Shown here: in pieces, positions 38 through 42,736 of the stretch | Layout of the letters: every line of letters starts with the position of its first letter | Position numbering within the stretch: the stretch's first letter is position 1 | From: a plasmid | Strand: one strand, 5' to 3' | Sequence record: NZ_CP044066.1 | Length of the DNA stretch: 64,000 nt | Translations under genes and position numbers: made by a program | Notes under the pieces: model-generated | The model's database searches: none | What the model saw: the letters and a program-made list of their open reading frames with translations, nothing else | Told to the model about the DNA's origin: nothing

Positions 38-572
38 ATGCACGGACAGGGATTGGTGACCATGAGCATGCGAGAGATAGACCGCATGAAGGTGATCCAG
101 GCGGTGGCAGACGGCCATTTGGCACGCTGGTGTGCGGCCGAGAAGCTCAGTATCAGTCGCCGCCCGGTCGAGCGGTTGGCGCAGCGATATCGACAGGACG
201 GTCCACGCGGCCTCTTGTCCCGTAAATGGGGGCAAGCCGGCCACCGTCAGTTGGCTCCCCGGGCTGGCGTCACGTGCACGGGGCTTGACCCGCGACCGCT
301 ACGCGGAATTTGGCCCGGCGCTGGCCGCTGAGATCCTGTGCGAGCGTCATGCTAAGGTGAGAGCAACAGAAAGGGAACGGCTGCACCCCACATGCCGGAA
401 GTCGACACCTTATGCGGCAGCGGATCGTCCCAGTATTCCGGACGCCGGCACAGGGTGCAGAAGTGAGCACGGGGTATTCGTTCTCTCCCATTTGATCGTC
501 ATAGTTGCCGCCCTGTGTCTACAGCGTGGACATTGCGGTGGGGCTATCTTTTCTGAAGGTGAGCGACCGTAG
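38..572 (+). pseudogene. Transposase N-terminal fragment (ISNCY-like), frameshifted and 3'-truncated
   Basis: ORF 38-331 contains 'MSMREIDRMKVIQAVADGHLARWCAAEKLSISRRPVERLAQRYRQDGPRGL', typical of the helix-turn-helix N-terminus of ISNCY/IS1202-type transposases. The continuation 'RDRYAEFGPALAAEILCERH' is in a different frame (ORF 132-572). The 3' end is cut off by the end of the 544-4647 gene. Confidence 0.45.
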
Positions 573-3500
573 TCAACAACGCATCGAGACCAATTGGCTT
601 GGATAGATGCGCATCAAAGCCTGCGCGTAAAGCTGCATCGACATCAGCTTGACGATCGAAGCCGCTTATGGCAATGGCATAGATTCCGGCCAGTTTAGGC
701 CGGCTACGCACAGCTCGCAGCAACTCGTAGCCATCCATGCCGGGCATCCCAAGATCCGATAACAAAAGATGCGGTGGCGCGCTCTCCATCTGATCCAGCG
801 CTCGCTCTGCGTTAGTCGCTACGTCGACAGTCGCTCCAATTGACTCGAGCAGCAGTCTAAAGGTCTCCACGGTCAATGCATCGTCATCGACCAAAAACAC
901 ACGCATGCCCTGGAGGACTGCAGTCGGCACTGCTGAGACATGAGCTCCCGTCTCTTGCGTTGAAACAGATGGCAGCTCGACGGTGAAGGTTGCGCCCTGG
1001 CCGATGCCCGCCGACTCGGCATGCACGGTACCATTCTGCAATTCAACCAACTCCTTCACCAACGATAGACCGATGCCGAGCCCACCGCTGCGACCGGCCG
1101 AGAATCCTCCCTGGCGGAACAAGTCAAAGATGTAGGGCAACGTCTGCGCGTCAATGCCCGTGCCCGTATTGCGGACCACCAGACGAAGCTGTGCACCAAT
1201 CCGACTCAAAACGACGTCGATGGCACCACCTTCCTCGGTAAATTTGATTGCGTTGCTGAGCAAGTTCCAAACGATCTGCTCGATACGCGTCAGATCTGCT
1301 CGTACCCACAGCGGCTCCTTACCAATGTCGCAGACCAGGGTCACGCCTCGATCATTTGCGTCTTGCGTAACCGCGTCGCACACGCGTTTCACCACGCTCC
1401 TCAGATCGATTGTCTCTCGGACAATCGATAACTTGCCTGTTCGAATGCGCGACATATCCAGCAAGTCGTCGATAATTTTGGCCTGACCGATGATCGTCTG
1501 TCTGATGGTGTTCGTTGCGCGCTCGATGACAGGATTGCGCTGTGCCTCAGGCGAGCGCGCAATCAACTCATTGCTGGCGCTAATCAGGTTTAGGGGATGC
1601 TTGAGTTCATGCGAGACAATGGCCAAGAACTCGTCACGGCGGAACTGCCCCTGCTGCCATTTGTCTTCATCCGCACGTGGCGCACCGGCGGGCAGCACCT
1701 CGTCCAGGTCGCGGGCGATCTTGGCAAAGCCTATGACGCCACCAGTGTCCAGACGGGACAAGACCCCACTGGAGCGAAAACGCTTGCCGTCCTTGCGCAG
1801 GTGCCAGCGCTCTTCTTCCACACGCCCATATTTGCGAGCCTGTGCCATCTCTTCGTCGGGGACGCCGCGCTCGCGATCTTCCGGCGTAAAGAGGGTGCTC
1901 GCGAGATTACCGAGCATTTCGCTTTCCGAGTATCCGAAGATTCTTTCCGCGCCTCGATTCCAGCTTGTTATGCGACCATCATCATCAAACGTAATGATGG
2001 CGTAATCGCGCGTGCTTTCGGCAACGATGTTCATACGATGCTCGCCTTCACGCGCCCGCTCTTCTGCGGCACGACGTGAGGTGATATCGATGAACGAGAG
2101 CACCGCGCCATCGATGCGGTCCTCTGTGGTTCGATATGGCAAGAATCGCGCGAGGTACCACCGCCCGTCGATACTGCGCAGCTCGCGCTCGATCAATCTC
2201 AGTGAGTCAAAGGCTTCGGCAGCGTCGTCGGCAAGCTTGTCGTACTCCAGACGGTGCGTGATGTCGAGCAGCGATCGGCCGATATCCGAGGGGATAATGC
2301 TAAAGACATCAGTGGCCCGTGGCGTGTAGCGCTTGATTCGGATGTTGCGGTCTACGAATATCGTACCGATGTCGTTCGCCGTAATTAGGTTTTGCAGGTC
2401 GTCGTTGATCTTGCTTGTTTCCTCGACCTTCGACTTCAGTTCCGCATTGACAGTGGTCAGTTCCTCATTGATGGACTGGAGCTCTTCTTTGCTCGTCTCA
2501 AGCTCTTCACTGGCCGAACGTAGCTCCTCGTTGATTGCCTGCAGCTCTTCGTTCGATGCCTTCAGTTCCTCCGTGGATGTCTCGGACTGTTCGATGGTTG
2601 CCTGTAGCTGCTCCTTCGTTCGTTGCAGCTCACGTTCGAGCTGACTCACGATCGGGTCCCGAGACACCACCTCCGAGACTTCACCGTCGGCACTCATGCT
2701 GTTTTCCACTTCGTCGAAGAGTACCAAAATGAAGTCCGCGCCGGATTCGGCGTCGTGCACAGGCCGCGCGATCATGTTGACAAAAAATCGGCGGCCGTCT
2801 CGCGCAAGCTCCACGCGGCGAGCCTCGACGCTGTGATTCGATTGCAATGCCTGGAAGATCGCAGTGCGCAGCTCCAAGCGCAACTCTGGCCTCACGGCAG
2901 CAATAATATTGTGCGAAGGAACGCCGCCGGCATATTGGAGAAAGCGACCGGCCCGATCCGATAGATGGACGATATCGGAGTCGCGGCTAAGCAAGACGCT
3001 CGGCGGCGCGTGTTGCTCCACGAGTCGTTGGTGAAGGTCGCCAAACGAAAACTTACGCTTGCCTGTGGGAGGCTGTAGAGTCATGGGCATTCGTGCGTTG
3101 GCCAAACCGACAGACGATAGCGGCACCGGAGAATCCGTTCTCACGGCAACATTGGCGCGGTAAATCCGCGCCTTCTTGTCAACCAATGTGAAAAGATCGC
3201 CTGCGCCGTCTGCAGTCTCCGAGCTGCCGAGAAATAAGAATCCGCCTTGCCGCAGCGCGAAGTGAAACGTACGGAGAATCTCGAGCTGCGCGTCGCGGTC
3301 CAGGTAAATTAGAAGGTTCCGGCAGCACACCATGTCCAGCCGCGAGAACGGTGGATCGCTAAGGACATTGTGGATAGCGAACAAGACATTGGCACGAAGC
3401 TCTTTCTTCACGCGATAGTGGACTGCCTCCTTGGTCAAAAATTGGCGCGACCTGCGACTGTCCACATCTGCAAGAATTGAATCAGGGTAGAGGCCGAGCC

Positions 3501-4647
3501 GTGCCGTCGCGATCGCACGTTCGTCGATGTCCGTTGCGAAAACCTGAAACGCGACGCCATCTACTGCGCGCTCAGCCGCCTCCTGAAGCGCCATCGCGAT
3601 CGAGTACGCTTCCTCGCCCGTTGCACAGCCAGCGGACCAAACTCGGATCGGCTCGTTGGCGCTCCGATTGTCCAGTAGCTGTGGAATGACAGTTGTCTGC
3701 AGCACATCGAAAGCATCCCGATCACGGAAGAAATTAGTGACGCTGATCAGCATGTCCTGCAGCAGTAACGGGGTCTCGTCCGGATGCTCGTGCAGATAGT
3801 CCCGATATTCGCGTAGATCGGTCAAGCCACTGACTTGCAGCCTTCTCTCGATACGACGAAGAATTGTTGCCCGTTTGTACTGGCGGAAGTCGTGCGAAGT
3901 ACGCGCTCGCAGAATTGCCATGATCTCGCGCAATATGCGTTCGGTATACTCCGCGGCCACCGCATGACTTTTGTTGGGTTCCGCCGCGCTAGGTATCTGA
4001 ATGCGGCTGGCGGTCACCCAGAGATCCATCAATCGCTGTGGCATCTCCGGCACCGACAACACTAGGTCGACCATGCCAGTGGTGATAGCAGCGCGCGGCA
4101 TGCTAGGGAACTCCGCCTCCTCTGGCCGCTGCGCAATGGTGATACCACCAAGTTCCTTGATGCGCGTCAAACCGACCGATCCGTCCGAGCCTGCGCCCGA
4201 CAAGACGATGGAAATGGCACGTTCACGATGTGCTTCCGCCAGTGAGCGAAAGAAAAGGTCAATCGCCGCACGTCGGTCATCTGGTGATTCTGCCGGCTGC
4301 ACTCGCAGACAGCCATCGACCATGGTCAGGAGCACCGATGGCGATATCACGTACACGTGATTGGCTTCAATTAGATTGGCATCCGCAACCTGAACTACGG
4401 GCATATCCGTCGCACTGCGCAACAGGTCGGGAAGCGTGCTATTGTGGTCGGGAGACAAATGCAGCACGATCACGTACGCGGCGCCGGAGCGCGCCGGCAG
4501 AGCTTCAAAGAAAGCTTTCAGCACTTCAATGCCGCCGGCCGAAGCACCTATGCCAACCACCGGAAAATTGAGTTGGCTTGGAGTTGGCACAGGCGGAGTT
4601 CGGACCATAGCTTGATTTAAGTTGGGTGGTGGAGCTTTGGCCACCAT
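544..4647 (-). CDS. CheB methylesterase / CheR methyltransferase / PAS / histidine kinase / receiver hybrid sensor protein
   Basis: 1367 aa. The N-terminus has a CheB-type 'VVGIGASAGG' nucleophile motif. The CheR SAM motif 'VWSAGCATGEEAYSIAMAL' follows. Then comes a heptad 'EELxxxN' coiled coil and a PAS region. The HisKA box is 'SHELKHPLN'. The HATPase has 'NLLSNAIKF...GLGIGLSLV'. The C-terminal receiver reads 'VFLVDDD...DLGMPGMDGYELLR'. An SD-like 'ggag' lies upstream of the ATG at 4647. Confidence 0.9.
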   Translation of the reverse strand: MVAKAPPPNLNQAMVRTPPVPTPSQLNFPVVGIGASAGGIEVLKAFFEALPARSGAAYVIVLHLSPDHNSTLPDLLRSATDMPVVQVADANLIEANHVYVISPSVLLTMVDGCLRVQPAESPDDRRAAIDLFFRSLAEAHRERAISIVLSGAGSDGSVGLTRIKELGGITIAQRPEEAEFPSMPRAAITTGMVDLVLSVPEMPQRLMDLWVTASRIQIPSAAEPNKSHAVAAEYTERILREIMAILRARTSHDFRQYKRATILRRIERRLQVSGLTDLREYRDYLHEHPDETPLLLQDMLISVTNFFRDRDAFDVLQTTVIPQLLDNRSANEPIRVWSAGCATGEEAYSIAMALQEAAERAVDGVAFQVFATDIDERAIATARLGLYPDSILADVDSRRSRQFLTKEAVHYRVKKELRANVLFAIHNVLSDPPFSRLDMVCCRNLLIYLDRDAQLEILRTFHFALRQGGFLFLGSSETADGAGDLFTLVDKKARIYRANVAVRTDSPVPLSSVGLANARMPMTLQPPTGKRKFSFGDLHQRLVEQHAPPSVLLSRDSDIVHLSDRAGRFLQYAGGVPSHNIIAAVRPELRLELRTAIFQALQSNHSVEARRVELARDGRRFFVNMIARPVHDAESGADFILVLFDEVENSMSADGEVSEVVSRDPIVSQLERELQRTKEQLQATIEQSETSTEELKASNEELQAINEELRSASEELETSKEELQSINEELTTVNAELKSKVEETSKINDDLQNLITANDIGTIFVDRNIRIKRYTPRATDVFSIIPSDIGRSLLDITHRLEYDKLADDAAEAFDSLRLIERELRSIDGRWYLARFLPYRTTEDRIDGAVLSFIDITSRRAAEERAREGEHRMNIVAESTRDYAIITFDDDGRITSWNRGAERIFGYSESEMLGNLASTLFTPEDRERGVPDEEMAQARKYGRVEEERWHLRKDGKRFRSSGVLSRLDTGGVIGFAKIARDLDEVLPAGAPRADEDKWQQGQFRRDEFLAIVSHELKHPLNLISASNELIARSPEAQRNPVIERATNTIRQTIIGQAKIIDDLLDMSRIRTGKLSIVRETIDLRSVVKRVCDAVTQDANDRGVTLVCDIGKEPLWVRADLTRIEQIVWNLLSNAIKFTEEGGAIDVVLSRIGAQLRLVVRNTGTGIDAQTLPYIFDLFRQGGFSAGRSGGLGIGLSLVKELVELQNGTVHAESAGIGQGATFTVELPSVSTQETGAHVSAVPTAVLQGMRVFLVDDDALTVETFRLLLESIGATVDVATNAERALDQMESAPPHLLLSDLGMPGMDGYELLRAVRSRPKLAGIYAIAISGFDRQADVDAALRAGFDAHLSKPIGLDALLTTVAHLQKR
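2400..2600 (-). repeat. Intragenic 21-nt (7-aa) tandem repeat array encoding EELKASN/EELQAIN/EELRSAS/EELETSK/EELQSIN/EELTTVN
   Basis: The reverse complement of 2455-2590 translates to 'ETSTEELKASNEELQAINEELRSASEELETSKEELQSINEEL', extending to 'TTVNAELKSKVEE' at 2400-2460. The periodic 'gagctcttc' is visible on the + strand. Confidence 0.85.
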
Positions 4648-5711: not shown

Positions 5712-8705
5712 ATGACGCCATCCAGCACGGTGCATTCCAAAAGTATCTTTCCTCCCATTGTTGCAATCGGTGCCGCAGCTGGTGGGGTCGTTGCCTTGCA
5801 AAAAGTGTTCCGAAGGCTACCCAAAGGCATGCCGTTTGCAATCGTCGTGCTTCAGGACCTCACTGAAGGATACTCACAACGCCTGGCGGGCTTAATATCG
5901 AGTTGGACGAATCTCCCCGTACATGAAGCCGACACCCATTTAGTGCCGAAGATCGGCGAGGTGTATTTACCTTCCCCCGGCCGTGTGCTTACCATCGACG
6001 CACGTTCGCTACGCGCGAGCAAGATCGAAGGTGATCGCCTTGTTAGCGCTAGCGTGAACATGATCGACCGCTTTCTGGAAGGCCTTGCGCAACATCATGG
6101 AAGCCGGGCAGTCGCGGTCATTTTGTCGGGAAAAGGAATGGACGGCGCGGCCGGTGCCTTGTGCATTCGTAATGCCGGCGGGATTGTGATCGTACAGGAT
6201 CCACTGACAGCGTTGCACGATAGCATGCCTAACGCGGTGATACGGCGCGGCCTTCATGATCACATACTGCCACCCGGCGCGATCGGCTCACAAATCCTAG
6301 CGTGTGGCTCCAATAGCTATTCCCGCCCGCGGAATGCTGAAGGGACGGAGCAGATGGACAACAGGGTGTTGGCTCGCATCCTTCTACTAGTCCGCGTGCA
6401 TTCTGGTATCGATTTCACGGGATACAAGACGGCCCCGCTGCTCTGGCGCGTCAAGCAGCGCATGGATCGGCGACATGTGCGAGAGATTGCGGACTACGCA
6501 AGCCTGATCTCGGAAGACCCGGTGGAACTGGAGTCCCTTATCCGCGATATTCCATTACACGTGACCGAATTCTTTCGCGATCCGGGGGCATGGGCAGCAC
6601 TCAAGGAGGAGGTTCTCCTCCCTCTTATGCGGACAGCGGACGCACATAATCCGGTGCGTACATGGACGGCCGGTTGCGCTAGCGGCGAGGAGGCATACTC
6701 GCTTGCGATGACGCTTGAGGATATCAAGCAGGAGATCGATTCTTCTGCGTGTTATCAGAGTTTCGTCACGGATGCTTCTCCCGAGATCGTGCATCGCGCT
6801 CGCTGCGGCGTGTTTGCTCCATCCGACATGGCGACCGTGTCGCAGCGACAACGGACGGAGTATTTCTTTAGTGCAGACAAGATGTTCACTGTCAGAGGTT
6901 TTTTGCGCGAGCAGATGGTTTTCTCCTCTCAGAATCTCATCTCTGACCCTCCATTCGCGAACATGGATCTTGTCACTTGCCGAAACCTACTGATATACCT
7001 AGAGCCCTCCACTGCGAGGCAGATAATCTATATTTTGCACAGTGCGCTGCGCGAAGGGGGCTATCTGTTTCTCGGCGGCAGCGAATCTTATGACCTGGAG
7101 CAAAGCGGCTTTTCAAAAGTGTCCGGGAGGTTCAACATCTTCCGGAAAACCGGGATCGTTCTGGCGCGAGCCAACGCGGAGCATGCGGCCAGTCAACAAC
7201 GTCGCAATATATCAACTTTGAATGCTGGCTTACTTCGTCAGGCCAACGAGGATTTTGTCTTTCCCTCAGTGCTTGTTGACGATCACGGGCGGCTGCTACG
7301 TGTGTATGGGGCCGCCGGTGACATCCTTCGAATACCCGCCGGAGAACCCACAAATACTCTATTGTCGCTACTACCATGGCAATGGGTGGACCCTCTGCGT
7401 CGCGCCATGTGTGAGGCGTTAGCACAAGATCAGCAGCGGATCGTACGGGATCTATATGATCGGGTGGATTTGCGCATCAGAGTGATACCCATACGTGTCA
7501 GCGCCGAGAATCCTCCCAGTCGTATGCTTCTCTCGTTCATGAGCGAGGAGAGCGGTCAATTTACCCTGGTTCCGAGTGTCCCCCTTTCGGAAAGCGTTGA
7601 CCAGCACCGTAGCGGGGTTCGCCGCTGCGCGGGACCGCCTGAGAAAATCCAATCGTCGTCTCATCAGGAATACGACGCTTTACGCGAGAGGCTGCTGGCA
7701 GTCAATGAGGAATTGCTCGCTTCCAATATTTTACTGAACACGAGCAACGATAATCTTCACGGCGCCAACGCCGAACTCCACGAGAAGATTGCGCAGCTGG
7801 AGATTCGTGCGGAAGTACTTTCATCCGGGGAGGTCATGACTATCTTCCTTGACAAGGACCGGAGGGTTCGCTGGTTCACCCCTGCCACCACGAGACTATT
7901 TCCGTTAAAACCGGAGGACGTGGGGCGAGACATCCATGACCTCGTTCCGCGGTTTCGCGATCCGTCGTTCTTGTCCGACATCCAAGAGGTCTTGCGTTCC
8001 TCCGAAATCAAGGATGCCATAGTGCACGGGGACGACGACAGATGGTATCGGCGGCGATTGGTCCCACACGAGGCAGCGATCGGAACCATAGATGGTGTAG
8101 CGGTAACCTTCGAGGACTTCACGACGCGTCGGCACGTCGAAAATGCGCTATGGGCGAGCGAAGATATGCATCGACACAGTCAGATGTGCCTGTCTTCGCA
8201 GAAAGCGGCACTGCAGTTGGCGATGAATGGGGCCCCACTGACAGAGTCGCTTGAGATCCTGCGACATACGATGACCGGAGAGTCAGGCGATAGACGATCC
8301 GCAGCGTTCTATGTAATGCGAGAGTCGAGGCTGCATCACTTGAAGGGAATGCCAGATGCATACGCTCGGTATCTGAATGGCGCTGATGAGACGCTGGAGT
8401 CGGCCTCCTGCAAGTTCGCCCTGGCGACGAACCAAACCGTCACCACATGCGACATCCTTCGCGATGAGCGTTGGAAACCGTGGGCTTTGGTTAGTTCCAG
8501 CTTCGGATATCGCGGTTGTTGGTCGTTTCCCATCCGAACCGGGAGCAGCCAGCTTGTTGGCGCTTTGGTTGTGTACTTCGGTGTCGCTCAAACTCCGGAG
8601 CCTGTTGACCTCCAATTGGCCGCCGCTATGATACACACCGCTGCGATTATCATTTCGCGAAAGGTTGGCGTCGATGTATTCGTAGCGAATGGCTCTCACG
8701 TATAA
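5712..8705 (+). CDS. CheB-like (Ser to Ala) / CheR / coiled coil / PAS / GAF signalling protein, with no kinase core
   Basis: 997 aa. The N-terminal motif is 'PIVAIGAAAGG', a CheB-type motif with Ala in place of the nucleophile Ser. The CheR motif 'VRTWTAGCASGEEAYSLAMTL' is intact. A degenerate 'NEELLASN...NDNL...NAEL' coiled coil, a PAS region and a C-terminal GAF-like region follow. There is no HisKA/HATPase or receiver. ATG at 5712 with a purine-rich upstream. Confidence 0.85.
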   Translation: MTPSSTVHSKSIFPPIVAIGAAAGGVVALQKVFRRLPKGMPFAIVVLQDLTEGYSQRLAGLISSWTNLPVHEADTHLVPKIGEVYLPSPGRVLTIDARSLRASKIEGDRLVSASVNMIDRFLEGLAQHHGSRAVAVILSGKGMDGAAGALCIRNAGGIVIVQDPLTALHDSMPNAVIRRGLHDHILPPGAIGSQILACGSNSYSRPRNAEGTEQMDNRVLARILLLVRVHSGIDFTGYKTAPLLWRVKQRMDRRHVREIADYASLISEDPVELESLIRDIPLHVTEFFRDPGAWAALKEEVLLPLMRTADAHNPVRTWTAGCASGEEAYSLAMTLEDIKQEIDSSACYQSFVTDASPEIVHRARCGVFAPSDMATVSQRQRTEYFFSADKMFTVRGFLREQMVFSSQNLISDPPFANMDLVTCRNLLIYLEPSTARQIIYILHSALREGGYLFLGGSESYDLEQSGFSKVSGRFNIFRKTGIVLARANAEHAASQQRRNISTLNAGLLRQANEDFVFPSVLVDDHGRLLRVYGAAGDILRIPAGEPTNTLLSLLPWQWVDPLRRAMCEALAQDQQRIVRDLYDRVDLRIRVIPIRVSAENPPSRMLLSFMSEESGQFTLVPSVPLSESVDQHRSGVRRCAGPPEKIQSSSHQEYDALRERLLAVNEELLASNILLNTSNDNLHGANAELHEKIAQLEIRAEVLSSGEVMTIFLDKDRRVRWFTPATTRLFPLKPEDVGRDIHDLVPRFRDPSFLSDIQEVLRSSEIKDAIVHGDDDRWYRRRLVPHEAAIGTIDGVAVTFEDFTTRRHVENALWASEDMHRHSQMCLSSQKAALQLAMNGAPLTESLEILRHTMTGESGDRRSAAFYVMRESRLHHLKGMPDAYARYLNGADETLESASCKFALATNQTVTTCDILRDERWKPWALVSSSFGYRGCWSFPIRTGSSQLVGALVVYFGVAQTPEPVDLQLAAAMIHTAAIIISRKVGVDVFVANGSHV

Positions 8706-9143: not shown

Positions 9144-9785
9144 TCAACGGCTAGAAACCAAGCTCCCTGCTTCTTGCTTGATGCACAGACCCAGCCGATC
9201 GGCGAGACGCACCAGCTCGGGCAAAGAGTCGAGCTCGAGCTTTTGCATCACACGTGCACGATGGACCTTAATCGTCTTCTCCACCGTACCAAGCTCGCTA
9301 GCCACCTGTTTGTTACGGATGCCGGTCACTACCCATGTCAGTACCTCGAACTCTCGAGGTGTCAGCCTCTGAATCTTCATTTGCAGCTCCTGCAATTCCC
9401 GTTGTTCTTCGAAGTGTTCTGCGGCCTGGGCGCAACCCTTCTTCACTGCAGCAAGTAGTTGCGTCTCTGACACCGGTTTTTCGAGGAACGCTATGGCACC
9501 CGCTTGCATTGCTCGGACCGCCTGTGCAACGTCGGCATATCCGCTCAGAAAGATTACGGGAATCTTGCCTTCAAGACTCTGCTGGAGTACGAGTCCGTCT
9601 GTACCCGGCATCAGCAGGTCCAGCACCAAGCATGAGGGCTCGGGTCCAAGCTTCACTTCATCAAGGAAAGACTGTGCCGATGAGAACATACTTACCAGAT
9701 AACCATGAGCGGCGAGCATGCGGCTTAGCGCTCGCCTCACGCTGCCATCATCATCGACGATATAAACGGTTGCTTTTGCAAACAT
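9144..9785 (-). CDS. FixJ/LuxR-family response regulator (REC + LuxR HTH)
   Basis: 'MFAKATVYIVDDDGSVRRAL...LLMPGTDGL' is a receiver domain. 'LTPREFEVLTWVVTGIRNKQVASELGTVEKTIKVHRARVMQKL' is a LuxR-type HTH. ATG at 9785 is preceded by GGAG. The 9144-10121 ORF in the track is an unsupported N-terminal extension. Confidence 0.9.
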   Translation of the reverse strand: MFAKATVYIVDDDGSVRRALSRMLAAHGYLVSMFSSAQSFLDEVKLGPEPSCLVLDLLMPGTDGLVLQQSLEGKIPVIFLSGYADVAQAVRAMQAGAIAFLEKPVSETQLLAAVKKGCAQAAEHFEEQRELQELQMKIQRLTPREFEVLTWVVTGIRNKQVASELGTVEKTIKVHRARVMQKLELDSLPELVRLADRLGLCIKQEAGSLVSSR

Positions 9786-9832
9786 ACGTTGTCTCCAGGG
9801 AAGATTTGCAAAATGGGAGCCTGCGCCGTGTC

Positions 9833-10672
9833 CTAAGAGCCCATGACGACGTGAGTTCTCTCTTGCAGTAGTTCGAATTCGAATGTCATGCCCCGTCCGC
9901 TGTTGCAGTTGGCCTTGAGACGCCCGCCATTTCGCTCCATAAGTGCCCGACTGAGCGATAACCCCAAGCCCATACCCCTGGGCTTCGAGAAGTAGAAGGG
10001 TCGAAAAATCCTCGAGAGATCGTCTTTGGCTACACCGCACCCGTTGTCTTGAACGGCAATGCACAACGTGCCATCGCCCGCTTTGACCCGTATGACTATG
10101 GAGCGATCGTCGGTCGAGCATCCATTGGTCACAGCATCAAGCGCGTTGGCCAGCAAGTTCAGGAGCACCAAGCGAATTTCCACCGGGTCTCCCATCGCGC
10201 GCGGTAGTGGCTCTGCAAGATCGCGCTGAATCACGACGCAGCGCGATCTCGCATTCGCGCCCGCAAGTTCCACCGCTTGATCAGTCATATCGCCTACGCT
10301 GAATGGCCGCATGTGCGGCGCTTCCCCAAGGACGAGCGCCCGAACGGCGCGCACGATATCGCTTGCCCGCGACGCGTCGTCTACGATATCGTCCAGAATC
10401 TCACGTAGCAACTTCTGTTCGAGCATGTTCGACGCCAGCAACTCGCGCGCGGCGTGCGCGTTGCTCGTTATAGCCGTGAGCGGCTGGCTCAGTTCATGAG
10501 CCAGCGCACCCGCCAGTGTGGTCAGTCCAGTCCGTTGCGACGCATCTTCCGGCAGGCCTTCTGATTCCCGCGGGATCCGCGCTTGTTCGCCGCTACTTCG
10601 AAATGCCAGGGAGCAAGCACGGATGCCAATACCGACGCTTATGCATAGCATCGATACTGCTAAGGGATGCAT
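9833..10672 (-). CDS. Sensor histidine kinase (FixL/NtrB-like HisKA + HATPase) with a short membrane N-terminus
   Basis: H-box 'LAHELSQPLTAITSNAHAA'. ATP-lid motifs 'LLNLLANALDAV', 'DNGCGV', 'GMGLGLSLS'. Hydrophobic N-terminus 'MHPLAVSMLCISVGIGI'. GAGGAG RBS before the ATG at 10672. It lies 48 bp upstream of the regulator gene. Confidence 0.85.
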   Translation of the reverse strand: MHPLAVSMLCISVGIGIRACSLAFRSSGEQARIPRESEGLPEDASQRTGLTTLAGALAHELSQPLTAITSNAHAARELLASNMLEQKLLREILDDIVDDASRASDIVRAVRALVLGEAPHMRPFSVGDMTDQAVELAGANARSRCVVIQRDLAEPLPRAMGDPVEIRLVLLNLLANALDAVTNGCSTDDRSIVIRVKAGDGTLCIAVQDNGCGVAKDDLSRIFRPFYFSKPRGMGLGLSLSRALMERNGGRLKANCNSGRGMTFEFELLQERTHVVMGS

Positions 10673-24699: not shown

Positions 24700-27600
24700 C
24701 TATTGACGACCGCGGCTGATCAATGCGTTTAGCTTTTGATAATCCGCGGGTTTGACCATGTAGTGGTCGATTGCGCCCTGCCTGTGGTGTCCGGTCGCAG
24801 GAAGGCCATAGCCGCTCAGTGCAACCACGAGCACGCTGGTTTGTTCCGGCATTTCGCGGATCCGGCGCGCCACTTCATAGCCGTCCATATCAGGCAGACC
24901 AATATCGAGCAAGATCACTTCCGGACGGAACTCTTCTACCGACGCAAGAGCCGCAGTTCCATCGGCGGCAACACGTACCTCGTGCCCATCCAGGAGCAAA
25001 AGAGCGGCCGCGCTCTGCGCGGCATCATTGTTATCATCCACCAGCAATATTCGGCGACTCGTAGGTTCGCTCGCTGGCTCAACGGGATTCGAATGGCGAT
25101 CGGCCAATGTTCCGTGGGGCAACACAGGTAATCGTACGACAAACGTGCTGCCTTGGTTCAGCCCTGGGCTCGTCGCATGGACGGTGCCACCGTGCAGTTC
25201 AACTAGCTTGCGCACCAGCGCGAGTCCGAGCCCCAAGCCCGACTGTCTCCGATCCGCAGGCGAGTCCGCCTGTACGAAAATGTCAAAAATCGGTGAAAGA
25301 AGCTCTTTCTTCATTCCGATACCGTCATCGGTCAGCGTGATAACCGCCTCATCGCCCTGGCGCTCCAGCGTGAGGGCAATATGGCCGCCATCTGGGGTGT
25401 ACTTGATGGCGTTTGCCAGCAGATTGCTAACAATCTGCTCGAGCCGTAGAGGATCTCCTTTGACAATCAGCGAGCCCGGCGGCAGCCTAAGGGTCAGCTC
25501 ATGCCGTTGCAGATCCGCAAGCGGACGAAGGGTCTGGATTGCGTGTCGCACAGGTTCCGCTAGATCTATCTGGACAGACCTAACGACGATCACGCCGCGG
25601 GTGATTCGCGAGACATCGAGAAGGTCGTCGACGAGGCCGATCTCGTGGTCCAGTTGTCGCTGCACCGATTCTTGCACCTGCCGAACGGTCACGGCGTCGG
25701 CGGTACCGCGCTGCCAGACAAGTAGCCCGCTGCGAATTGCGGCAAGTGGATTGCGCAACTCGTGTCCAAGCATAGCCAGGAATTCATCTTTCTGACGATC
25801 GGCTTCTTGCAGCCGGGCAAAATCCGCTCGCTGCCTGGTGACATCTTCAATCGTCAGGAGAACCGAGCCCTGCCCTGACCAGTCCAACCTGCGCGCATTT
25901 AGTCGCATGGTGCGCAGGCCGATTCGCGGGAAAGCGTGAACGATCTCGTAATCGCGAACCGCGGAATGTCGGGGAAGTACATTCTCGAGCAGTTCGCGTA
26001 GCGCCGGAATATCCCACTGGCCGTTACCCAGTGCGTATAGCCGGGAGCCCGCAGTGCTCTCAACAGTCGTGGCGAACATCTGGTAGAAAGCCGCGTTGGC
26101 TCGCTTTACGCGAAGGCCCCCATCGAGCACGAGGATCGGCTGTGCCGTCGTCTCGATGATACCCTCCGCAAAGTCTCTGGCCCCGGCGACATCGGTGTGC
26201 AGATCCTTGAGCTCTCGCACCCGATAGCGCAGTTCCTCATTGGTGGTCGAGAGTTCTTCATTGATCGACTGGAGCTCTTCCTTCGCCGTCTCCAGCTCCT
26301 CGTTCGTGCTGCGGAACTCCTCGTTGCTAGATAGCAGTTCTTCCTCGCTGGACTTGAGTTCCTCGCGGGCGCTCTCGTGCTCTTCCAGCGCCGCTCTGAG
26401 ACGCTCACGGGTTGCGGCAAGCTCGCTTGTCAGCCGGGCGATCTCCTCATCTTTGCCCCCGCGGGTACGGGCGTATTGCGGCCCAACACGCTGCTGCAGT
26501 AACTGTAGGATCAACGCCCTGAGAGGTGCATCTGCAAATCCTCTTTGCGTGACCGGAGGGTAGATGTGTCCCTCGAAAAAGACCAGGAACCAGCGCGAAT
26601 CAGTGCCCGATAGCTTTACGGGACGCACTTCAATGCTGGCCGCACAGTCGCTGCCAGCAAGATTGGCCCGCAATCCTGTCCGACGAGCCGGCGCACCGCT
26701 CTGGCGTACTCTATTGATCGCTTCCGTAACGGCCAGAAAAATCTCCGGCCTAGCGAGTTTTTGAAGGTTCATGCTCGGAGGACCTTCCGGATTAGATAGC
26801 CACCCACTTGTATCGCCGCGAAACATAAGGATATTGAGGTCGCTATCGCATACCACACCGGGGGGCGCGTAGCGACCGAGAGCCTGCCGGTCGGCCTCTG
26901 TGCGGAGTTGCGTTTCCTGCGTTTGTTCACGAGTGGAAGTTCCATGTCGATTTGCTCCGCCATGGGGTCGGGCTGCGATTGTGTCCGGCAACGACGGCTG
27001 AATAGTAGGTCGTGGTTTTCGGATGTAGACCTTGGAACTAGCGTCTTCCAGAACGCCAAAGTACTCGGAGAACGCTCCGACAGTTTCGGAAGGGCCGAGC
27101 ATCAAGACGCCTTCAGTGCGCAACGCATAATGAAAGAGAGGCAGCACGCGAGCTTGTAGCACCGGATCGAGGTAGATCAGCAGGTTCCTGCAACTCACCA
27201 GGCTCATGCGCGAAAACGGGGGATCCTCGGCGACGTTGTGACGCGCAAAGGTACACATGTCCCGTAAGGACTTGTCGATGCGGAAGTATTCGCCTTCGCG
27301 CACGAAATAGCGGCTCAGGCGCTCGGCCGAGACGTTGCGCGCAATATTTTCTATGTAGCGTCCGGTGCGAGCGGCTTCCAGCGCCTCAAGGCTGACGTCC
27401 GTGCCGAATATTTGTACTGAGGCTTCCGAAAGTTGGGGCCCAAGATACTCCGCCAGGCAAATGGCAAGCGAATAGACCTCTTCCCCGCTCGCGCATCCCG
27501 GCACCCAGATTCGAATGGGCCGGTTTGCGCCTGTCTCGCGGAGAATGCGGGGCAAAACGGTGTGTACCAGGGTGTCGAATGTCTTCGGGTCCCGAAAGAA

Positions 27601-28467
27601 CTCGGTTACGCGGACGAGTAGATCACGACCCAGCGCCAGCGCCTCGGCTGTATCCTCTTCAAGGACTGCACGATAGTCGGCTAGCGATGTCAATTGGCGC
27701 AAAGCCATACGACGCGCGAGTCTGCGCTCGACAGTACCGCGCTTGTAATGGGTGAAGTCGATCGTGCAGGCCGATCGTAAGAGCCAGAATATGCGCCGGA
27801 GGGCGGGGCCTCCCGAATCGGCTTCTAGGCTTGTACAAACATCATCTCCAACCCGCCGGATCGGGAGGGCTGTGATACGTCCGATCTCCGCCGCGATCTC
27901 TTGCGGCTTCATAACGAAGTCGACGCAACCAGTGGCAATGGCCGCCCGCGGCATGCTGGAGAATTTAGCGGATTCCTCGTCCTGCGCAAACGTAATTCCG
28001 CCCTCCCGCTGCAGCGCACGCAGGCCCAACGCGCCGTCCGAGCCTCCACCCGAAAGCACGACGCCGATGGCGTTCTGACCTTCATGCGCCGCCAGCGAGT
28101 CGAACAGATCGTCGATTGGCATCGGAGGGCCCAGCGTGTTGCCACCCGGCTCGAGGTGAATCTTCCAGCCATTCACGAACATTCGGGCGTTGGGCGGAAT
28201 TACGTAGACGCGATTGATCCCTAACTGCATTCCGTCAACCGCTTCGACCACCTCCATTTCCGTTCGCGTGGCCAGAATTCCGGGCAGCAAACTCTCGTGG
28301 GACGGGTCAAGATGCTGAACGATCAGGAACGCCGCACCAGTGTCGCCAGGAAGCGCGCCAAAAAAGTCGGACAGCGCCTCTAGTCCGCCAGCTGATGCGC
28401 CAATACCAACGAGCGGAATCGAGGAAGGCGTCGGTTCTGCAGAATCCGCGGACAGGCTAGTCGCCAT
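24700..28467 (-). CDS. CheB methylesterase / CheR methyltransferase / PAS / histidine kinase / receiver hybrid sensor protein (paralog of 544-4647)
   Basis: CheB motif 'PLVGIGASAGG'. CheR motif 'IRIWVPGCASGEEVYSLAICL'. A heptad EEL array and a PAS region. HisKA 'GHELRNPLAAIR'. HATPase 'NLLANAIKYT...GLGLGLALV'. C-terminal receiver 'RILLVDDNND...DIGLPDMDGYEV'. The ATG at 28467 ('MATSLSADS') is preceded by GAGGA. The track ORF extends to 28521. Confidence 0.9.
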   Translation of the reverse strand: MATSLSADSAEPTPSSIPLVGIGASAGGLEALSDFFGALPGDTGAAFLIVQHLDPSHESLLPGILATRTEMEVVEAVDGMQLGINRVYVIPPNARMFVNGWKIHLEPGGNTLGPPMPIDDLFDSLAAHEGQNAIGVVLSGGGSDGALGLRALQREGGITFAQDEESAKFSSMPRAAIATGCVDFVMKPQEIAAEIGRITALPIRRVGDDVCTSLEADSGGPALRRIFWLLRSACTIDFTHYKRGTVERRLARRMALRQLTSLADYRAVLEEDTAEALALGRDLLVRVTEFFRDPKTFDTLVHTVLPRILRETGANRPIRIWVPGCASGEEVYSLAICLAEYLGPQLSEASVQIFGTDVSLEALEAARTGRYIENIARNVSAERLSRYFVREGEYFRIDKSLRDMCTFARHNVAEDPPFSRMSLVSCRNLLIYLDPVLQARVLPLFHYALRTEGVLMLGPSETVGAFSEYFGVLEDASSKVYIRKPRPTIQPSLPDTIAARPHGGANRHGTSTREQTQETQLRTEADRQALGRYAPPGVVCDSDLNILMFRGDTSGWLSNPEGPPSMNLQKLARPEIFLAVTEAINRVRQSGAPARRTGLRANLAGSDCAASIEVRPVKLSGTDSRWFLVFFEGHIYPPVTQRGFADAPLRALILQLLQQRVGPQYARTRGGKDEEIARLTSELAATRERLRAALEEHESAREELKSSEEELLSSNEEFRSTNEELETAKEELQSINEELSTTNEELRYRVRELKDLHTDVAGARDFAEGIIETTAQPILVLDGGLRVKRANAAFYQMFATTVESTAGSRLYALGNGQWDIPALRELLENVLPRHSAVRDYEIVHAFPRIGLRTMRLNARRLDWSGQGSVLLTIEDVTRQRADFARLQEADRQKDEFLAMLGHELRNPLAAIRSGLLVWQRGTADAVTVRQVQESVQRQLDHEIGLVDDLLDVSRITRGVIVVRSVQIDLAEPVRHAIQTLRPLADLQRHELTLRLPPGSLIVKGDPLRLEQIVSNLLANAIKYTPDGGHIALTLERQGDEAVITLTDDGIGMKKELLSPIFDIFVQADSPADRRQSGLGLGLALVRKLVELHGGTVHATSPGLNQGSTFVVRLPVLPHGTLADRHSNPVEPASEPTSRRILLVDDNNDAAQSAAALLLLDGHEVRVAADGTAALASVEEFRPEVILLDIGLPDMDGYEVARRIREMPEQTSVLVVALSGYGLPATGHHRQGAIDHYMVKPADYQKLNALISRGRQ
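26225..26400 (-). repeat. Intragenic 21-nt (7-aa) tandem repeat array encoding EELKSSE/EELLSSN/EEFRSTN/EELETAK/EELQSIN/EELSTTN
   Basis: The reverse complement translates to 'REELKSSEEELLSSNEEFRSTNEELETAKEELQSINEELSTTNEEL'. The + strand shows periodic 'gagctcttc/ctcctcgtt' units. Confidence 0.85.
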
Positions 28468-28785
28468 GAGTGTCCTCTGTGCCAGTACGATACCCACGCC
28501 ACCAATCACGTCTCGCCGCACTAAGGTCTTCCCTGATCATACGCCTCGGTTGTGGGCGCTGCCCCTGAGCTCCTCCCATTACTGCAAATTTGTACCCAAT
28601 TCGGCGACGCAATGTGCAATATCGAAAGACGAAAGTCGGCAAGCTCTGCGAGGTGGTCGCCTATGCGACGCTTATTGAGGGTTTCGACGCGGTTGGGATC
28701 ACCTTTCGAAAGCATGGCTGGCGGGCACGATGATTGCGCTTCAGTGAATGCCTTGCGTTTCGCAGGGCGATCACAGAGGTTCACA

Positions 28786-29664
28786 ATGTTCATTCACAAC
28801 AAGCGTTTGCAGTACACCGTTCGTGTCTCACAGGCCGATCCGGGCCTCGCTAACCTGCTTCTCGAGCAGTTTGGCGGTCCTCAGGGGGAACTTGCTGCCG
28901 CCTGCAGGTACTTTACGCAGGCCTTGGCGGAGGAGGATCCGGGGAGAAAGGATATGTTGCTCGACATTGCCACCGAGGAACTAAGCCACCTTGAGATCGT
29001 GGGGTCAATCATTGCCATGCTCAACAGGGGCGCCAAAGGCGAACTTGCCGAAGGTGTGCAGAGCGAAGCGGATCTCTATCGATCCATGACCGGCGCAGGA
29101 AACGACAGTCATGTCACCCAGTTGCTGTTTGGCGGTGGCCCGGCGCTGGTGAATTCGGCTGGTGTTCCATGGACCGCTGCGTACATCGACAGTATCGGCG
29201 AACCCACGGCTGATCTACGCTCAAACATCGCTGCGGAATCGCGCGCCAAGATTGTCTATGAACGGCTGATGAACGTCACAACCGATCCCGGCATCAAGGA
29301 GGCACTCGGGTTTCTTATGACACGCGAGATCGCCCATCAGAAGTCGTTTGAGAAGGCGCTCTACTCGATTTCGCCGAACTTCCCGCCCGGAAAGCTTCCA
29401 GGCGATGCGCGGTTCGCGACGATCTATTACAACATGTCCAACGACGATCAACGTGGGCCGTGGAATAGCGACGAAACCTTCGCGTACGTGGAGGATCCGG
29501 AGCCGGCTGTCGATGGCGGGGATGGCACAGCTTCCGTCAAGCTTTCCGCGGATGAGCAAGAGGCTGTCATGCGCTTCGCCGCGCGCGGAAAGTCAGATCC
29601 CGAATCGGAACCGATGACTGGCGCAGAACTTGGCGCCGTCGGCGCGTTGGCAGAGCAGAAGTGA
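28786..29664 (+). CDS. Manganese catalase family protein
   Basis: ATG at 28786 after 'cagagg'. 'MFIHNKRLQYTVRVSQADPGLANLLLEQFGGPQGELAAACRYFTQA' is the canonical Mn-catalase N-terminus. The di-Mn ligand context is 'EELSHLEIVG'. Confidence 0.85.
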   Translation: MFIHNKRLQYTVRVSQADPGLANLLLEQFGGPQGELAAACRYFTQALAEEDPGRKDMLLDIATEELSHLEIVGSIIAMLNRGAKGELAEGVQSEADLYRSMTGAGNDSHVTQLLFGGGPALVNSAGVPWTAAYIDSIGEPTADLRSNIAAESRAKIVYERLMNVTTDPGIKEALGFLMTREIAHQKSFEKALYSISPNFPPGKLPGDARFATIYYNMSNDDQRGPWNSDETFAYVEDPEPAVDGGDGTASVKLSADEQEAVMRFAARGKSDPESEPMTGAELGAVGALAEQK

Positions 29665-42700: not shown

Positions 42701-42736
42701 ACGTTGCCTCTGGCAGGGGACCAGGGGAATCGAACC

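Follow-up and report, generated by a model that had tools for sequence, protein, structure and literature searches.

A conserved glutamate-pair heptad helix in CheB/CheR fusion proteins as a candidate built-in methylation substrate

A long predicted helix in the plasmid-encoded hybrid sensor kinase p1 carries an array of glutamate pairs in strict heptad register, downstream of CheB methylesterase and CheR methyltransferase domains in the same chain. On comparative sequence evidence, such an array typifies the CheB/CheR fusion family (KEGG K13924) as a whole and is no local oddity. The reading preferred here, held with modest confidence, is that the helix serves as a built-in methyl-accepting substrate, acted on by CheR and CheB either within one chain or between the partners of a dimer. 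Such self-methylation of the EEL helix had been proposed in a first-pass annotation of this DNA; its support now comes from comparative analysis (co-occurrence, conservation and decay), which strengthens the idea short of proof, whereas the match to the chemoreceptor methylation consensus that was offered for it had been overstated.

Reversible glutamate methylation is a textbook mechanism of sensory adaptation and, to our knowledge, has been established for chemoreceptors alone. Genes for CheB/CheR fusions were matched in at least 598 species-level genomes from many phyla, and surveys of genomes and metagenomes routinely class them as "chemotaxis genes" (e.g., PMC11316352). If the self-substrate reading is true, the "chemotaxis" annotation of K13924 would be misleading, and the family would form a large class of sensor kinases with built-in adaptation or memory. 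A non-chemotaxis sensor would then possess its own adaptation memory, and a minimal, single-polypeptide model would be available for how methylation tunes a signalling helix.

In the literature searched, which took in few subscription journals, the helix of K13924 proteins is given no function and no substrate is named, and neither a functional or structural study of CheB/CheR fusions nor biochemical evidence for helix methylation was found, in agreement with the first-pass annotation, which was aware of no experimental demonstration.

The fusion protein and its heptad helix

The DNA analysed (the window) is a 64-kb stretch of plasmid record NZ_CP044066.1, and its relevant features are collected in Table 1. 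The domain order of p1 is CheB-CheR-PAS-like-helix-PAS_10-PAS-HisKA-HATPase-REC, as assigned by Pfam, with the helix and the PAS-like domain taken from the AF2 model. All features of a hybrid histidine kinase are present, namely a HisKA domain with its H-box (SHELKHPLN), HATPase_c and a C-terminal receiver. By sequence comparison p1 is a plain member of K13924 with the same domain order: a receiver-less N-terminal CheB_methylest domain is followed in the same chain by CheR_N and CheR, then by the long helix and a downstream PAS_10, with high identity to named family members. The retrieved protein P0271 is identical to p1, and 120 homologs at 60-100% identity carry CheB/CheR fusion family names, the relatives at 60-84% identity being named "CheR family methyltransferase" or "two-component system CheB/CheR fusion protein". 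No structural difference separates K13924 proteins from p1, the family being annotated by domain content alone.

Table 1. Features of the window discussed in the text (aa, residues of the encoded protein)
Feature	Position	Strand	Residues or length	Basis or content
p1, hybrid sensor kinase	544..4647	-	1367 aa	ORF listing and Pfam
p1 CheB methylesterase domain	4030..4557	-	aa 31-206	Pfam CheB_methylest, E=1.5e-51
p1 CheR_N + CheR, SAM-dependent methyltransferase domain	3172..3930	-	aa 240-492	Pfam, E=5e-57
p1 linker between CheR and PAS-like domain	3058..3135	-	aa 505-530	AF2 pLDDT <50; mean information 1.15 bits
p1 PAS-like alpha/beta domain	2704..3045	-	aa 535-648	AF2 secondary structure, pLDDT 76-95
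p1 single continuous helix	2377..2649	-	aa 667-757, 91 residues	AF2 DSSP, pLDDT 75-92
p1 two in-register Glu-Gln units	2572..2613	-	aa 679-692	EQLQATI, EQSETST; upstream of array
p1 Glu-Glu heptad array	2434..2571	-	aa 693-738, 46 residues	EELKASN EELQAIN EELRSAS EELETSK EELQSIN EELTTVN AELK
p1 six exact EEL units	2446..2571	-	aa 693-734	Translation of p1
p1 PAS_10	2080..2397	-	aa 751-856	Pfam, E=2.4e-27
p1 output part	565..2001	-		Pfam: PAS 883-983, HisKA 1004-1071, HATPase_c 1118-1227, REC 1250-1361
p2, CheB-CheR-helix-PAS_10-GAF	5712..8705	+	997 aa	Neighbouring paralog of p1
p2 degenerate array	7662..7802	+	aa 651-697	Asn/Leu core kept, Glu pairs mostly gone
p3, CheB-CheR-helix-PAS-HisKA-HATPase-REC	24700..28521	-	1273 aa	Third fusion paralog
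p3 canonical array	26218..26385	-	aa 713-768	EELKSSE EELLSSN EEFRSTN EELETAK EELQSIN EELSTTN EELRYRV

Both enzymes of p1 had been described as intact from the motifs GASAGG (CheB) and GCATGEE (CheR), and the alignments bear this out. The CheB domain, which lacks an N-terminal receiver, retains the Ser-His-Asp triad in the aligned columns (GASAGG, VLHLS and GSDG), and p1 is one of the 357 members, among 428 aligned, in which the triad is intact; carrying the full triad of an active methylesterase, it is predicted to be functional. The CheR domain keeps GCATGEE, the Arg of FFRD and the Tyr of LIY, the latter two presumably corresponding to R98 and Y235 of Salmonella CheR, and the Arg and Tyr columns are kept in 449 of 458 family members. 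The solved CheR structures 5FTW and 1AF7 match this domain. With the SAM-binding motif G-C-A/S-T/S-G-E-E and the Arg and Tyr near the site of methyl transfer, CheR activity is likewise predicted. The segment that follows CheR, modelled with low confidence and poorly conserved, is a putative flexible tether. The PAS-like domain next to it has no Pfam call and is kept 5' of the helix at other loci, as seen by tblastn, and the helix always precedes PAS_10 in the family. In the AF2 monomer model the helix runs unbroken through residues 667-757 and enters the first strand of PAS_10 without a break; neither an antiparallel hairpin nor a four-helix bundle is present in that model.

Translation confirmed the six exact EEL heptads that had been reported for this protein within 2400-2600. 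The heptad frame exceeds these six units, running from aa 670 to 757, with RELQRTK, EQLQATI and EQSETST before them and AELKSKV, EETSKIN and DDLQNLI after them, and its core is formed by Leu at d and mostly Asn at a. That six EEL units should fall in register by chance is essentially impossible. A second Glu with small residues at both i-4 and i+3 is present 8 times in p1, and seven consecutive heptads show this arrangement; 2000 shuffles that preserved composition gave 1.4 on average and never more than 6. At position 687, in the second of the two Glu-Gln units, Gln is found 128 times and Glu 47 times across the family, a variation that, on sequence grounds, is as expected for a deamidation-type site; against the substrate reading, Gln is never seen at the six core sites of the array.

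About a third of the array had been said to be visible in the DNA as a 21-nt periodicity, which is about right: TRF reports a 21-nt unit in 2.4 copies at 2522-2571 with 80% matches. Since the heptad-specific identities are conserved across phyla and TRF finds only 2.4 imperfect copies, the array is ancient and no tandem-repeat artefact, and recent DNA duplication was ruled out as the origin of the repeat.

The array region of p1 has 18 acidic and 5 basic residues in 60, with a net charge of about -13. So high a density of negative charge could serve some other ligand or partner (divalent cations, a basic protein or a different modification), the link to CheB and CheR being then indirect. This explanation is very improbable. 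It leaves unaccounted for the invariant small residues that flank the second Glu, as well as the fixed spacing from CheR and the coupling to the CheB nucleophile described below, and an unsystematic look at the surroundings of the loci revealed no conserved gene for a partner.

Relation to chemoreceptors and a proposed mechanism

Homology of the helix to methyl-accepting chemotaxis proteins (MCPs) was ruled out: Pfam gave no MCPsignal (PF00015) match in p1 at E<=0.01 and only generic coiled-coil matches on the coil, and a PDB sequence search with the helix returned generic coiled coils, with a Thermotoga MCP at E about 0.1. The MCP tip signature is absent from 86 sequences comprising the 64-kb window and a first set of retrieved loci, and no MCP, CheA or CheW is encoded in the 32 longest ORFs of the window, which bears three of the fusions. 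Nor is the sequence match to chemoreceptor methylation sites as close as had been claimed. Four of the six units were said to fit the classical E-E-x-x-A-S/T, which was overstated, as EELKAS is the one strict match (1/6, and the only one in p1); EELTTV does not fit, and the looser E-E-x-x-small-small takes in three units (EELKAS, EELRSA and EELETS). For the 10-residue consensus [ASTG]2-x2-[EQ]2-x2-[ASTG]2 there are 0 full matches and 5 half matches in p1.

In general organization the p1 helix nonetheless resembles the methylation helices of Tar and Tsr, in that Glu-Glu or Glu-Gln pairs are spaced by heptads on a long helix, small residues lie to either side of the Glu proposed to be modified, on the same face of the helix, and there are multiple sites per chain; predicted CheR-type methyltransferase and CheB-type methylesterase domains are also at hand. 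Unlike Tar and Tsr, p1 lacks an MCP signalling domain and its hairpin tip, its modelled helix is straight where theirs form a four-helix bundle, and its enzymes, including a CheB free of the N-terminal receiver, are fused to the proposed substrate. Relative to the core, the Glu pair probably also has another placement in Tar and Tsr, whereas in p1 it occupies positions b and c of a zipper built on Leu (d) and Asn (a). Tethering of the enzymes, which in Tar and Tsr is provided by a C-terminal pentapeptide arm, would be achieved in p1 by covalent linkers predicted to be flexible, and the output is CheA in the former and a histidine kinase, GAF or other domain in the fusion family. A further comparison is offered by the Wsp (WspA/WspC/WspF) and Pil-Chp (PilJ/PilK/ChpB) systems, in which CheR/CheB-type adaptation tunes a non-flagellar output, as is proposed for p1; PilJ is reportedly methylated by PilK/ChpB (PMC12129077). 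Those systems, however, employ a separate true MCP, CheA and CheW, none of which was found in the p1 gene or its neighbourhood.

The conserved unit of the family consists of CheB-CheR, a flexible linker, the PAS-like domain, a second linker, the 91-residue helix and PAS_10; in p1 the two linkers have 26 and 19 residues and the array would span roughly 65 Angstrom. At b and c, which are exposed, the helix bears pairs of Glu-Glu or Glu-Gln in register (6 exact, and 8-9 with the extended frame). In the mechanism proposed, CheR would use S-adenosylmethionine to form a methyl ester on the second Glu (position c) of several heptads, and CheB would remove the methyl groups by hydrolysis and might also deamidate Glu-Gln units. 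Neutralisation of charge along the array would affect how stable the coiled coil is or how it packs; the coil is taken to be parallel, Asn-cored and only marginally stable, and may cap the N-terminus of PAS_10. Its change would in turn reset the PAS/kinase output that follows or, in paralogs, GAF and other outputs. The result would be chemoreceptor-style adaptation or memory in a sensor needing no MCP, CheA or CheW, with the PAS-like domain or the C-terminal receiver as candidate controllers of the methylation balance. More tentatively, the whole CheB-CheR-PAS-helix-PAS_10 unit can be viewed as a receptor-free adaptation device with a methylation code of 6-11 Glu residues, written and erased in cis or across a dimer, which could provide two-component and GAF sensors in many phyla, possibly non-chemotactic ones, with an integral-feedback memory hitherto regarded as peculiar to chemoreceptor arrays.

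Conservation and co-occurrence with the fused enzymes

Conservation was measured over 134 representatives of 50%-identity clusters. The array averages 3.64 bits per column and 79% mean pairwise identity, compared with 2.7-2.8 bits and 51-55% for CheB and CheR; no other stretch of 46 residues in the module is conserved so well. By heptad position, the values are 4.1-4.2 bits at b/c (the Glu pair), 3.7 at a/d and 3.7 at f (Ala, Ser or Thr), so that the exposed Glu-Glu positions are conserved above the core, and every heptad keeps its own sequence identity across phyla. A wider set, 187 arrays with 1321 heptads in all, has Ala, Ser, Thr or Gly at position 5 (i+3 of the second Glu) in 93% of heptads and small residues at both positions 5 and 6 (i+3 and i+4) in 58%; these heptads also show the leucine-zipper pattern, 85% of them having Leu at d and 73% having Asn at a. 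Surface conservation this extreme would fit a binding site and a turned-over substrate equally well.

It had been suggested that EE heptads be checked for co-occurrence with CheB-CheR fusions across genomes. At all 80 genome loci, which come from many phyla, CheB and CheR both lie upstream of the array, as they do at 62 of 65 metagenome loci that were chosen by the motif alone among those with enough upstream DNA. In the reverse direction, the array is present in 139 of 141 complete representatives retrieved using CheB-CheR alone. The distance from the end of CheR to the first EEL has a median of 197 residues (interquartile range 188-200). The three metagenome exceptions are a variant with CheR only (L126) and two loci rejected as arrays without enzymes, one a remnant truncated by an insertion sequence and interrupted by its transposase (L169), the other a coiled coil unrelated to the family (L153).

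Many short coil-PAS_10 proteins were returned by the first protein search. Four such ORFs inspected on long contigs (P0009, P0006, P0065 and P0071) each belong to a CheB-CheR gene that has suffered a frameshift or a partial deletion, and were rejected as stand-alone coils; seven genome loci seemingly without CheB or CheR have both enzymes upstream in another frame. The first-pass annotation had allowed that the EEL region might be a generic coil also found in homologs lacking both enzymes; among the genome loci, metagenome loci and ORFs examined, no instance of the coil turned up other than in CheB/CheR or CheR fusions.

Conservation and co-occurrence together bear on another account, in which the helix is an ordinary dimerisation or signal-transmitting coil capping the N-terminus of PAS_10, its Glu residues contributing solubility or helix propensity, and the fused CheB and CheR have their targets in trans, on chemoreceptors or elsewhere. 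Much about the helix is in keeping with this. Its a/d pattern is clean (Asn and Leu, respectively), its Pfam and PDB matches are to generic coiled coils, and degenerate family members retain the a/d core; in the AF2 model it is a single long helix connecting two PAS-type domains, an arrangement common in sensor kinases. As in the signalling helices of PAS and GAF sensor kinases, a heptad helix of parallel-dimer type runs straight into a PAS domain, and the Asn at a, also shared with those helices, suggests a polar core and hence a metastable, switchable coil. However, signalling helices are conserved mainly in the core and have no linked modifying enzymes, whereas in the fusion helix the exposed face is conserved most and tracks CheB/CheR. 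A structural coil should show a conserved core and a variable surface, and the array fails this expectation, with b/c and f equal to or higher than a/d; nor would such a coil be expected to keep heptad-specific identity across phyla or to be confined, at the loci examined, to CheB/CheR and CheR fusions. Glu pairs are dispensable for a coil, yet they are lost mainly where CheB is dead. A purely structural role is accordingly considered quite unlikely, though less so than an unrelated ligand.

Loss of the CheB nucleophile and decay of the array

The CheB nucleophile Ser has been lost in four independent lineages, three of which have also lost most of the Glu pairs and keep the Leu/Asn core. The Ser-to-Ala lineages P0156, P0161 and p2/P0392, with mutual identities of 31-47% in the CheB-CheR region, retain 1-3 Glu pairs together with Asn at a and Leu at d. 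Among sequences that retain the Ser, 2 of about 324 have degenerate arrays, and the association of Ser loss with array decay gives a Fisher p of about 7e-6 when lineages are treated as independent, with the decay events being few (3-4 independent). Exceptions to the coupling occur in both directions: P0153 has lost the Ser and keeps 5 of 6 Glu pairs, and P0121 and P0393 have degenerate arrays with an intact triad.

Decay with loss of CheB, strict co-occurrence and conservation of the exposed face would be expected equally if the array were a pseudosubstrate or docking helix, bound at the CheR and/or CheB active sites or by the CheR N-domain in an autoinhibitory or scaffolding role. No methylation cycle would then take place on the helix, and the real substrates would be other proteins, such as MCPs; the departure of the array from the full chemoreceptor consensus would also suit this explanation. 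On the other hand, the 6-11 near-identical sites exceed what 1:1 docking needs and resemble multi-site methylation arrays, and the flanking Glu-Gln/Glu-Glu interchange is typical of real CheB/CheR sites. Where MCPs are supposed as the substrates, the lack of any MCP near the 86 sequences or among the window ORFs scanned is unfavourable, as is the report that a Phaeobacter chimera does not share the regulation of the che genes (bioRxiv 10.1101/2025.03.24.645028). In R. centenum, a chimera is located outside the che clusters (PMC2890560). Docking without methylation is thus regarded as unlikely, and the self-substrate reading is retained.

The two other fusions of the window, p2 and p3, belong to sister subfamilies of p1. 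The former has an exact counterpart (P0391, 100% identity) encoded on a plasmid of Cupriavidus pauculus, and its CheB is predicted to be dead, with GAAAGG in place of the nucleophile motif and the His replaced by Asp (triad columns A/D/D). The window thus holds a set of natural controls, in which p1 and p3 are intact and p2, catalytically dead as judged from its triad, has a decayed array.

Anatomy of the fusion protein and its helix

The hybrid sensor kinase p1 is an ordinary representative of the CheB/CheR fusion proteins already annotated as KEGG K13924, with HisKA, HATPase_c and receiver domains assigned by Pfam to its C-terminal part. Both enzyme motifs reported in the first-pass annotation, GASAGG and GCATGEE, were found; CheB keeps its full Ser/His/Asp triad, and CheR its conserved Arg and Tyr. 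Translation likewise bore out the six exact heptads that had been read (EELKASN, EELQAIN, EELRSAS, EELETSK, EELQSIN and EELTTVN, aa 693-734), and the run, placed at 2400-2600, maps to window positions 2446-2571. The heptad frame continues on the N-terminal (RELQRTK, EQLQATI, EQSETST) and C-terminal (AELKSKV, EETSKIN, DDLQNLI) sides, with Leu at core position d and mostly Asn at core position a. In the DNA, TRF detects only 2.4 imperfect 21-nt copies (2522-2571).

Features of the three fusion genes and their surroundings, with conservation among 134 representatives
Feature	Location	Strand	Description	Bits/column	Mean pairwise identity
p1 ORF	544-4647	-	1367-aa protein		
p1 CheB_methylest	aa 31-206		Pfam	2.74	51%
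p1 CheR_N + CheR	aa 240-492		Pfam	2.81	55%
p1 EE array	aa 693-738		Glu-Glu heptads	3.64	79%
p1 PAS_10	aa 751-856		Pfam	2.66	50%
p1 second PAS	aa 883-983		Pfam		
Linkers				~1.1	
p2	5712-8705	+	second fusion; CheB-CheR-helix-PAS_10-GAF		
p3	24700-28521	-	third fusion; canonical array		
Overlapping kinase and regulator ORFs	9144-10672	-	just 3' of p2		
Histidine kinase ORF	9833-10672	-	HisKA + HATPase_c		
LuxR-type regulator ORF	9144-10121	-	REC + GerE		
PAS-PAS-GGDEF-EAL protein	12353-14920	-	855 aa		
Manganese catalase	28552-29664	+	adjoins p3		
KaiC-like gene	42704-44212	+	double ATPase		
Integrase	44868-45782	+	phage-type		
istA/istB	52762-54647	-	IS21-type		
Transposase fragment	38-331	+			

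The likeness to chemoreceptor methylation sites was narrower than first proposed. Of four units said to fit E-E-x-x-A-S/T, only EELKAS does so strictly; EELRSA and EELETS match a looser small-small form only, EELTTV fits neither, and no p1 unit matches the 10-residue consensus [ASTG]2-x2-[EQ]2-x2-[ASTG]2. In seven successive p1 heptads the second Glu is flanked on its own helical face by small residues, at i-4 and at i+3. Shuffling p1 2000 times gave this pattern 1.4 times on average and never more than 6 times, whereas p1 itself has it 8 times. The protein is not a methyl-accepting chemotaxis protein (MCP): neither a signalling domain nor a match to the full site consensus was found, and the predicted helix is unbroken where an MCP has a hairpin bundle.

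An AlphaFold2 model of p1 aa 1-870 (106 aligned sequences, mean pLDDT 85.6) predicts a PAS-like alpha/beta fold at aa 535-648 that has no Pfam call, low-confidence linkers at 505-530 and 650-668, and an unbroken helix at 667-757 that leads directly into strand one of PAS_10. PDB structures for the family are of isolated CheR and CheB only. Searched there by itself, the helix finds nothing beyond generic coiled coils, similarity to an MCP being non-significant (Thermotoga MCP, E ~0.1).

Co-occurrence of the array with CheB and CheR

Whether such heptads accompany CheB-CheR fusions phylogenetically had been put forward as a check, and in the samples below they almost always do. The helix and PAS_10 of p1, used as query, gave 2084 matches. 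When each species was represented by one genome, the peptide patterns EELET[SG][KR]EE and NEELxTVNxE matched at least 598 loci, spanning Proteobacteria, Acidobacteriota, Bacteroidota, Verrucomicrobiota, Chloroflexota and others; CheB and CheR lie directly upstream of the array, at a constant distance, in all 80 loci kept, the seven that seemed to be without them being frameshifted. In metagenome loci picked by DNA motif alone and counted where at least 2.3 kb lay upstream, both enzymes are present upstream in 62 of 65. One exception (L126, 11383-12998) is a CheR-only variant, CheR-PAS-array-PAS, with no fused CheB and none detectable in the 11 kb upstream; another (L169, 6066-8860) is a PAS-array-PAS ORF immediately 3' of a DDE transposase gene and is apparently what an insertion left of a fusion gene after removing the enzyme half; the third (L153) is an unrelated coiled coil. 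Four small ORFs on long contigs that seemed to hold the array alone are pieces of fusion genes.

In the reverse direction, p1 CheB-CheR (aa 1-500) was used as query in a full HMMER scan, which yielded 150 representatives of 50%-identity clusters; the helix region was matched in 141. Eight of the remaining nine are truncated or frameshifted and one, P0198, has a complete, genuine CheB-CheR-REC architecture and no helix; in P0124 the helix is matched at its end only, the PAS-like domain and array having been lost in frame. The array is therefore present in 139 of 141 complete representatives, and the first EEL follows the end of CheR by a median of 197 residues (interquartile range 188-200).

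Three family entries (P0126, P0252 and P0227) are out-of-frame database translations across the array, in which Arg/Gly/Ala-rich junk replaces the EE heptads; entries of this kind would mislead domain censuses. The p1 ortholog of Cupriavidus pinatubonensis LMG23994 (L001, 7327-10235), 97% identical over helix/PAS_10, is split into three ORFs with the CheR SAM domain and PAS-like domain deleted, and the gene is thus decaying in a close relative.

Conservation and decay of the Glu pairs

Among the 134 representatives, no 46-residue window of the module is more conserved than the EE array. Within it, the exposed b and c positions (Glu-Glu) carry 4.1-4.2 bits, position f (Ala/Ser/Thr) 3.7 and the a/d core 3.7, and individual heptads retain their own identity across phyla, with the consensus EELKASN EELQA[IM]N EELRS[AT]x EELETS[KR] EELQS[IV]N EELxTVN xELK. 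Because exposed positions are at least as informative as the core and heptads are individually distinct, this is not how a purely structural coiled coil is conserved. That the helix is a structural signalling element only, the enzymes acting elsewhere, is improbable, being disfavoured both by this pattern and by the coupled decay of array and esterase described below. That the array is a site for an unrelated ligand or partner is less probable still.

In a census of 187 arrays (1321 heptads), uninterrupted [EQ][EQ] runs are 5-11 heptads long, plus two runs of 3; a small residue occupies heptad position 5 in 93% and both positions 5 and 6 in 58%, position 3 is Leu in 85% and position 7 is Asn in 73%. 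Some subfamilies have (EELQSTN EELETTN)n expansions. In the expanded-array subfamily (L088, L091, L117, L148, L149, L160 and other metagenome loci), this 14-residue unit varies in number between loci, and as many as 11 Glu-Glu heptads can follow one another without a break. At aa 686-687, the flanking unit is Glu-Gln in 128 sequences and Glu-Glu in 47, an interchange that occurs at deamidation-type sites of chemoreceptors.

The window itself offers natural controls. In p2, the CheB nucleophile Ser is replaced by Ala and the His by Asp (GAAAGG; LQDL), the CheR motifs look intact, and GAF forms the C terminus, kinase domains being absent. In the p2 helix, Asn at a and Leu at d are retained, but most of the Glu pairs are gone (NEELLAS NILLNTS NDNLHGA NAELHEK), a single classical EExxAS unit, EELLAS (aa 666), being left; the norm of the wider p2 subfamily is an intact triad with its own EE array (SREELEASREELQALNEELKASNEQLNxSNEDLN). 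Two Ser-to-Ala representatives, P0156 and P0161, likewise retain the a/d core with only 1-3 Glu pairs. As the CheB-CheR regions of these three share only 31-47% identity, no closer than to canonical members, they were treated as independent lineages. There are counter-examples: P0153 lacks the Ser yet keeps 5 of 6 Glu pairs, and P0121 and P0393 keep the triad with decayed arrays. Degenerate arrays occur in 3 of 4 Ser-less versus 2 of ~324 Ser-retaining lineages (Fisher p ~7e-6, on small numbers and with no phylogenetic correction). What matters most in these alignments is that the coil itself can do without the Glu pairs, which stay invariant with an intact esterase and are mostly lost with a dead one.

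The reading favoured here, with modest confidence, is that the p1 helix is what the tethered CheR and CheB methylate and demethylate. It builds on what the sequences show: both enzymes with their catalytic residues, a site-like geometry, co-occurrence and coupled decay. Methyl transfer, in cis or across a dimer, would presumably modify the c-position Glu. By a plausible mechanism akin to that of chemoreceptors, methylation would partly neutralise the array region, whose 60 residues have a net charge of about -13; this would alter the stability or packing of the Asn-cored, marginally stable coil capping PAS_10 and so reset the kinase. The comparative data do not separate a true substrate from a pseudosubstrate or docking element, which is considered rather unlikely. 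If it works as a methyl-accepting module, p1 would act like the adaptation machinery of chemoreceptors packed into a single chain. The module is of interest in being widespread, unexplained in the searchable literature and testable with one purified protein and the natural controls of the window; no functional study of a CheB-CheR fusion or its helix was found in that literature, which lies mostly outside subscription journals.

Genomic setting

Three CheB-CheR fusion paralogs lie within 28 kb of the 64-kb window, p1 and p2 being transcribed divergently. Protein matches assign the window to a Cupriavidus replicon: p2 is identical (100%) to a plasmid protein of Cupriavidus pauculus, and p1 shares 84% identity with one from C. 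pampae. Scanning the 32 longest window ORFs turned up no MCP, CheA or CheW, and the MCP tip signature is absent from the 86 sequences searched (window and fetched loci). Published remarks agree that CheB-CheR chimeras stand apart from chemotaxis operons: in CtrA-relay mutants of Phaeobacter the chimera showed no co-regulation with che genes (bioRxiv 10.1101/2025.03.24.645028), and the R. centenum hybrid RC1_3878 is outside all three che clusters (PMC2890560).

The overlapping histidine kinase and LuxR-type response regulator ORFs beside p2 may be partners of this kinase-less protein, and a PAS-PAS-GGDEF-EAL protein is encoded close to the fusion genes. The manganese catalase gene divergently adjoining p3, together with DUF4142 and PRC-domain genes near the L001 ortholog of p1, hints at a stress-response context. 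The KaiC-like, integrase, IS21-type and transposase genes point to a mosaic replicon rich in mobile elements.
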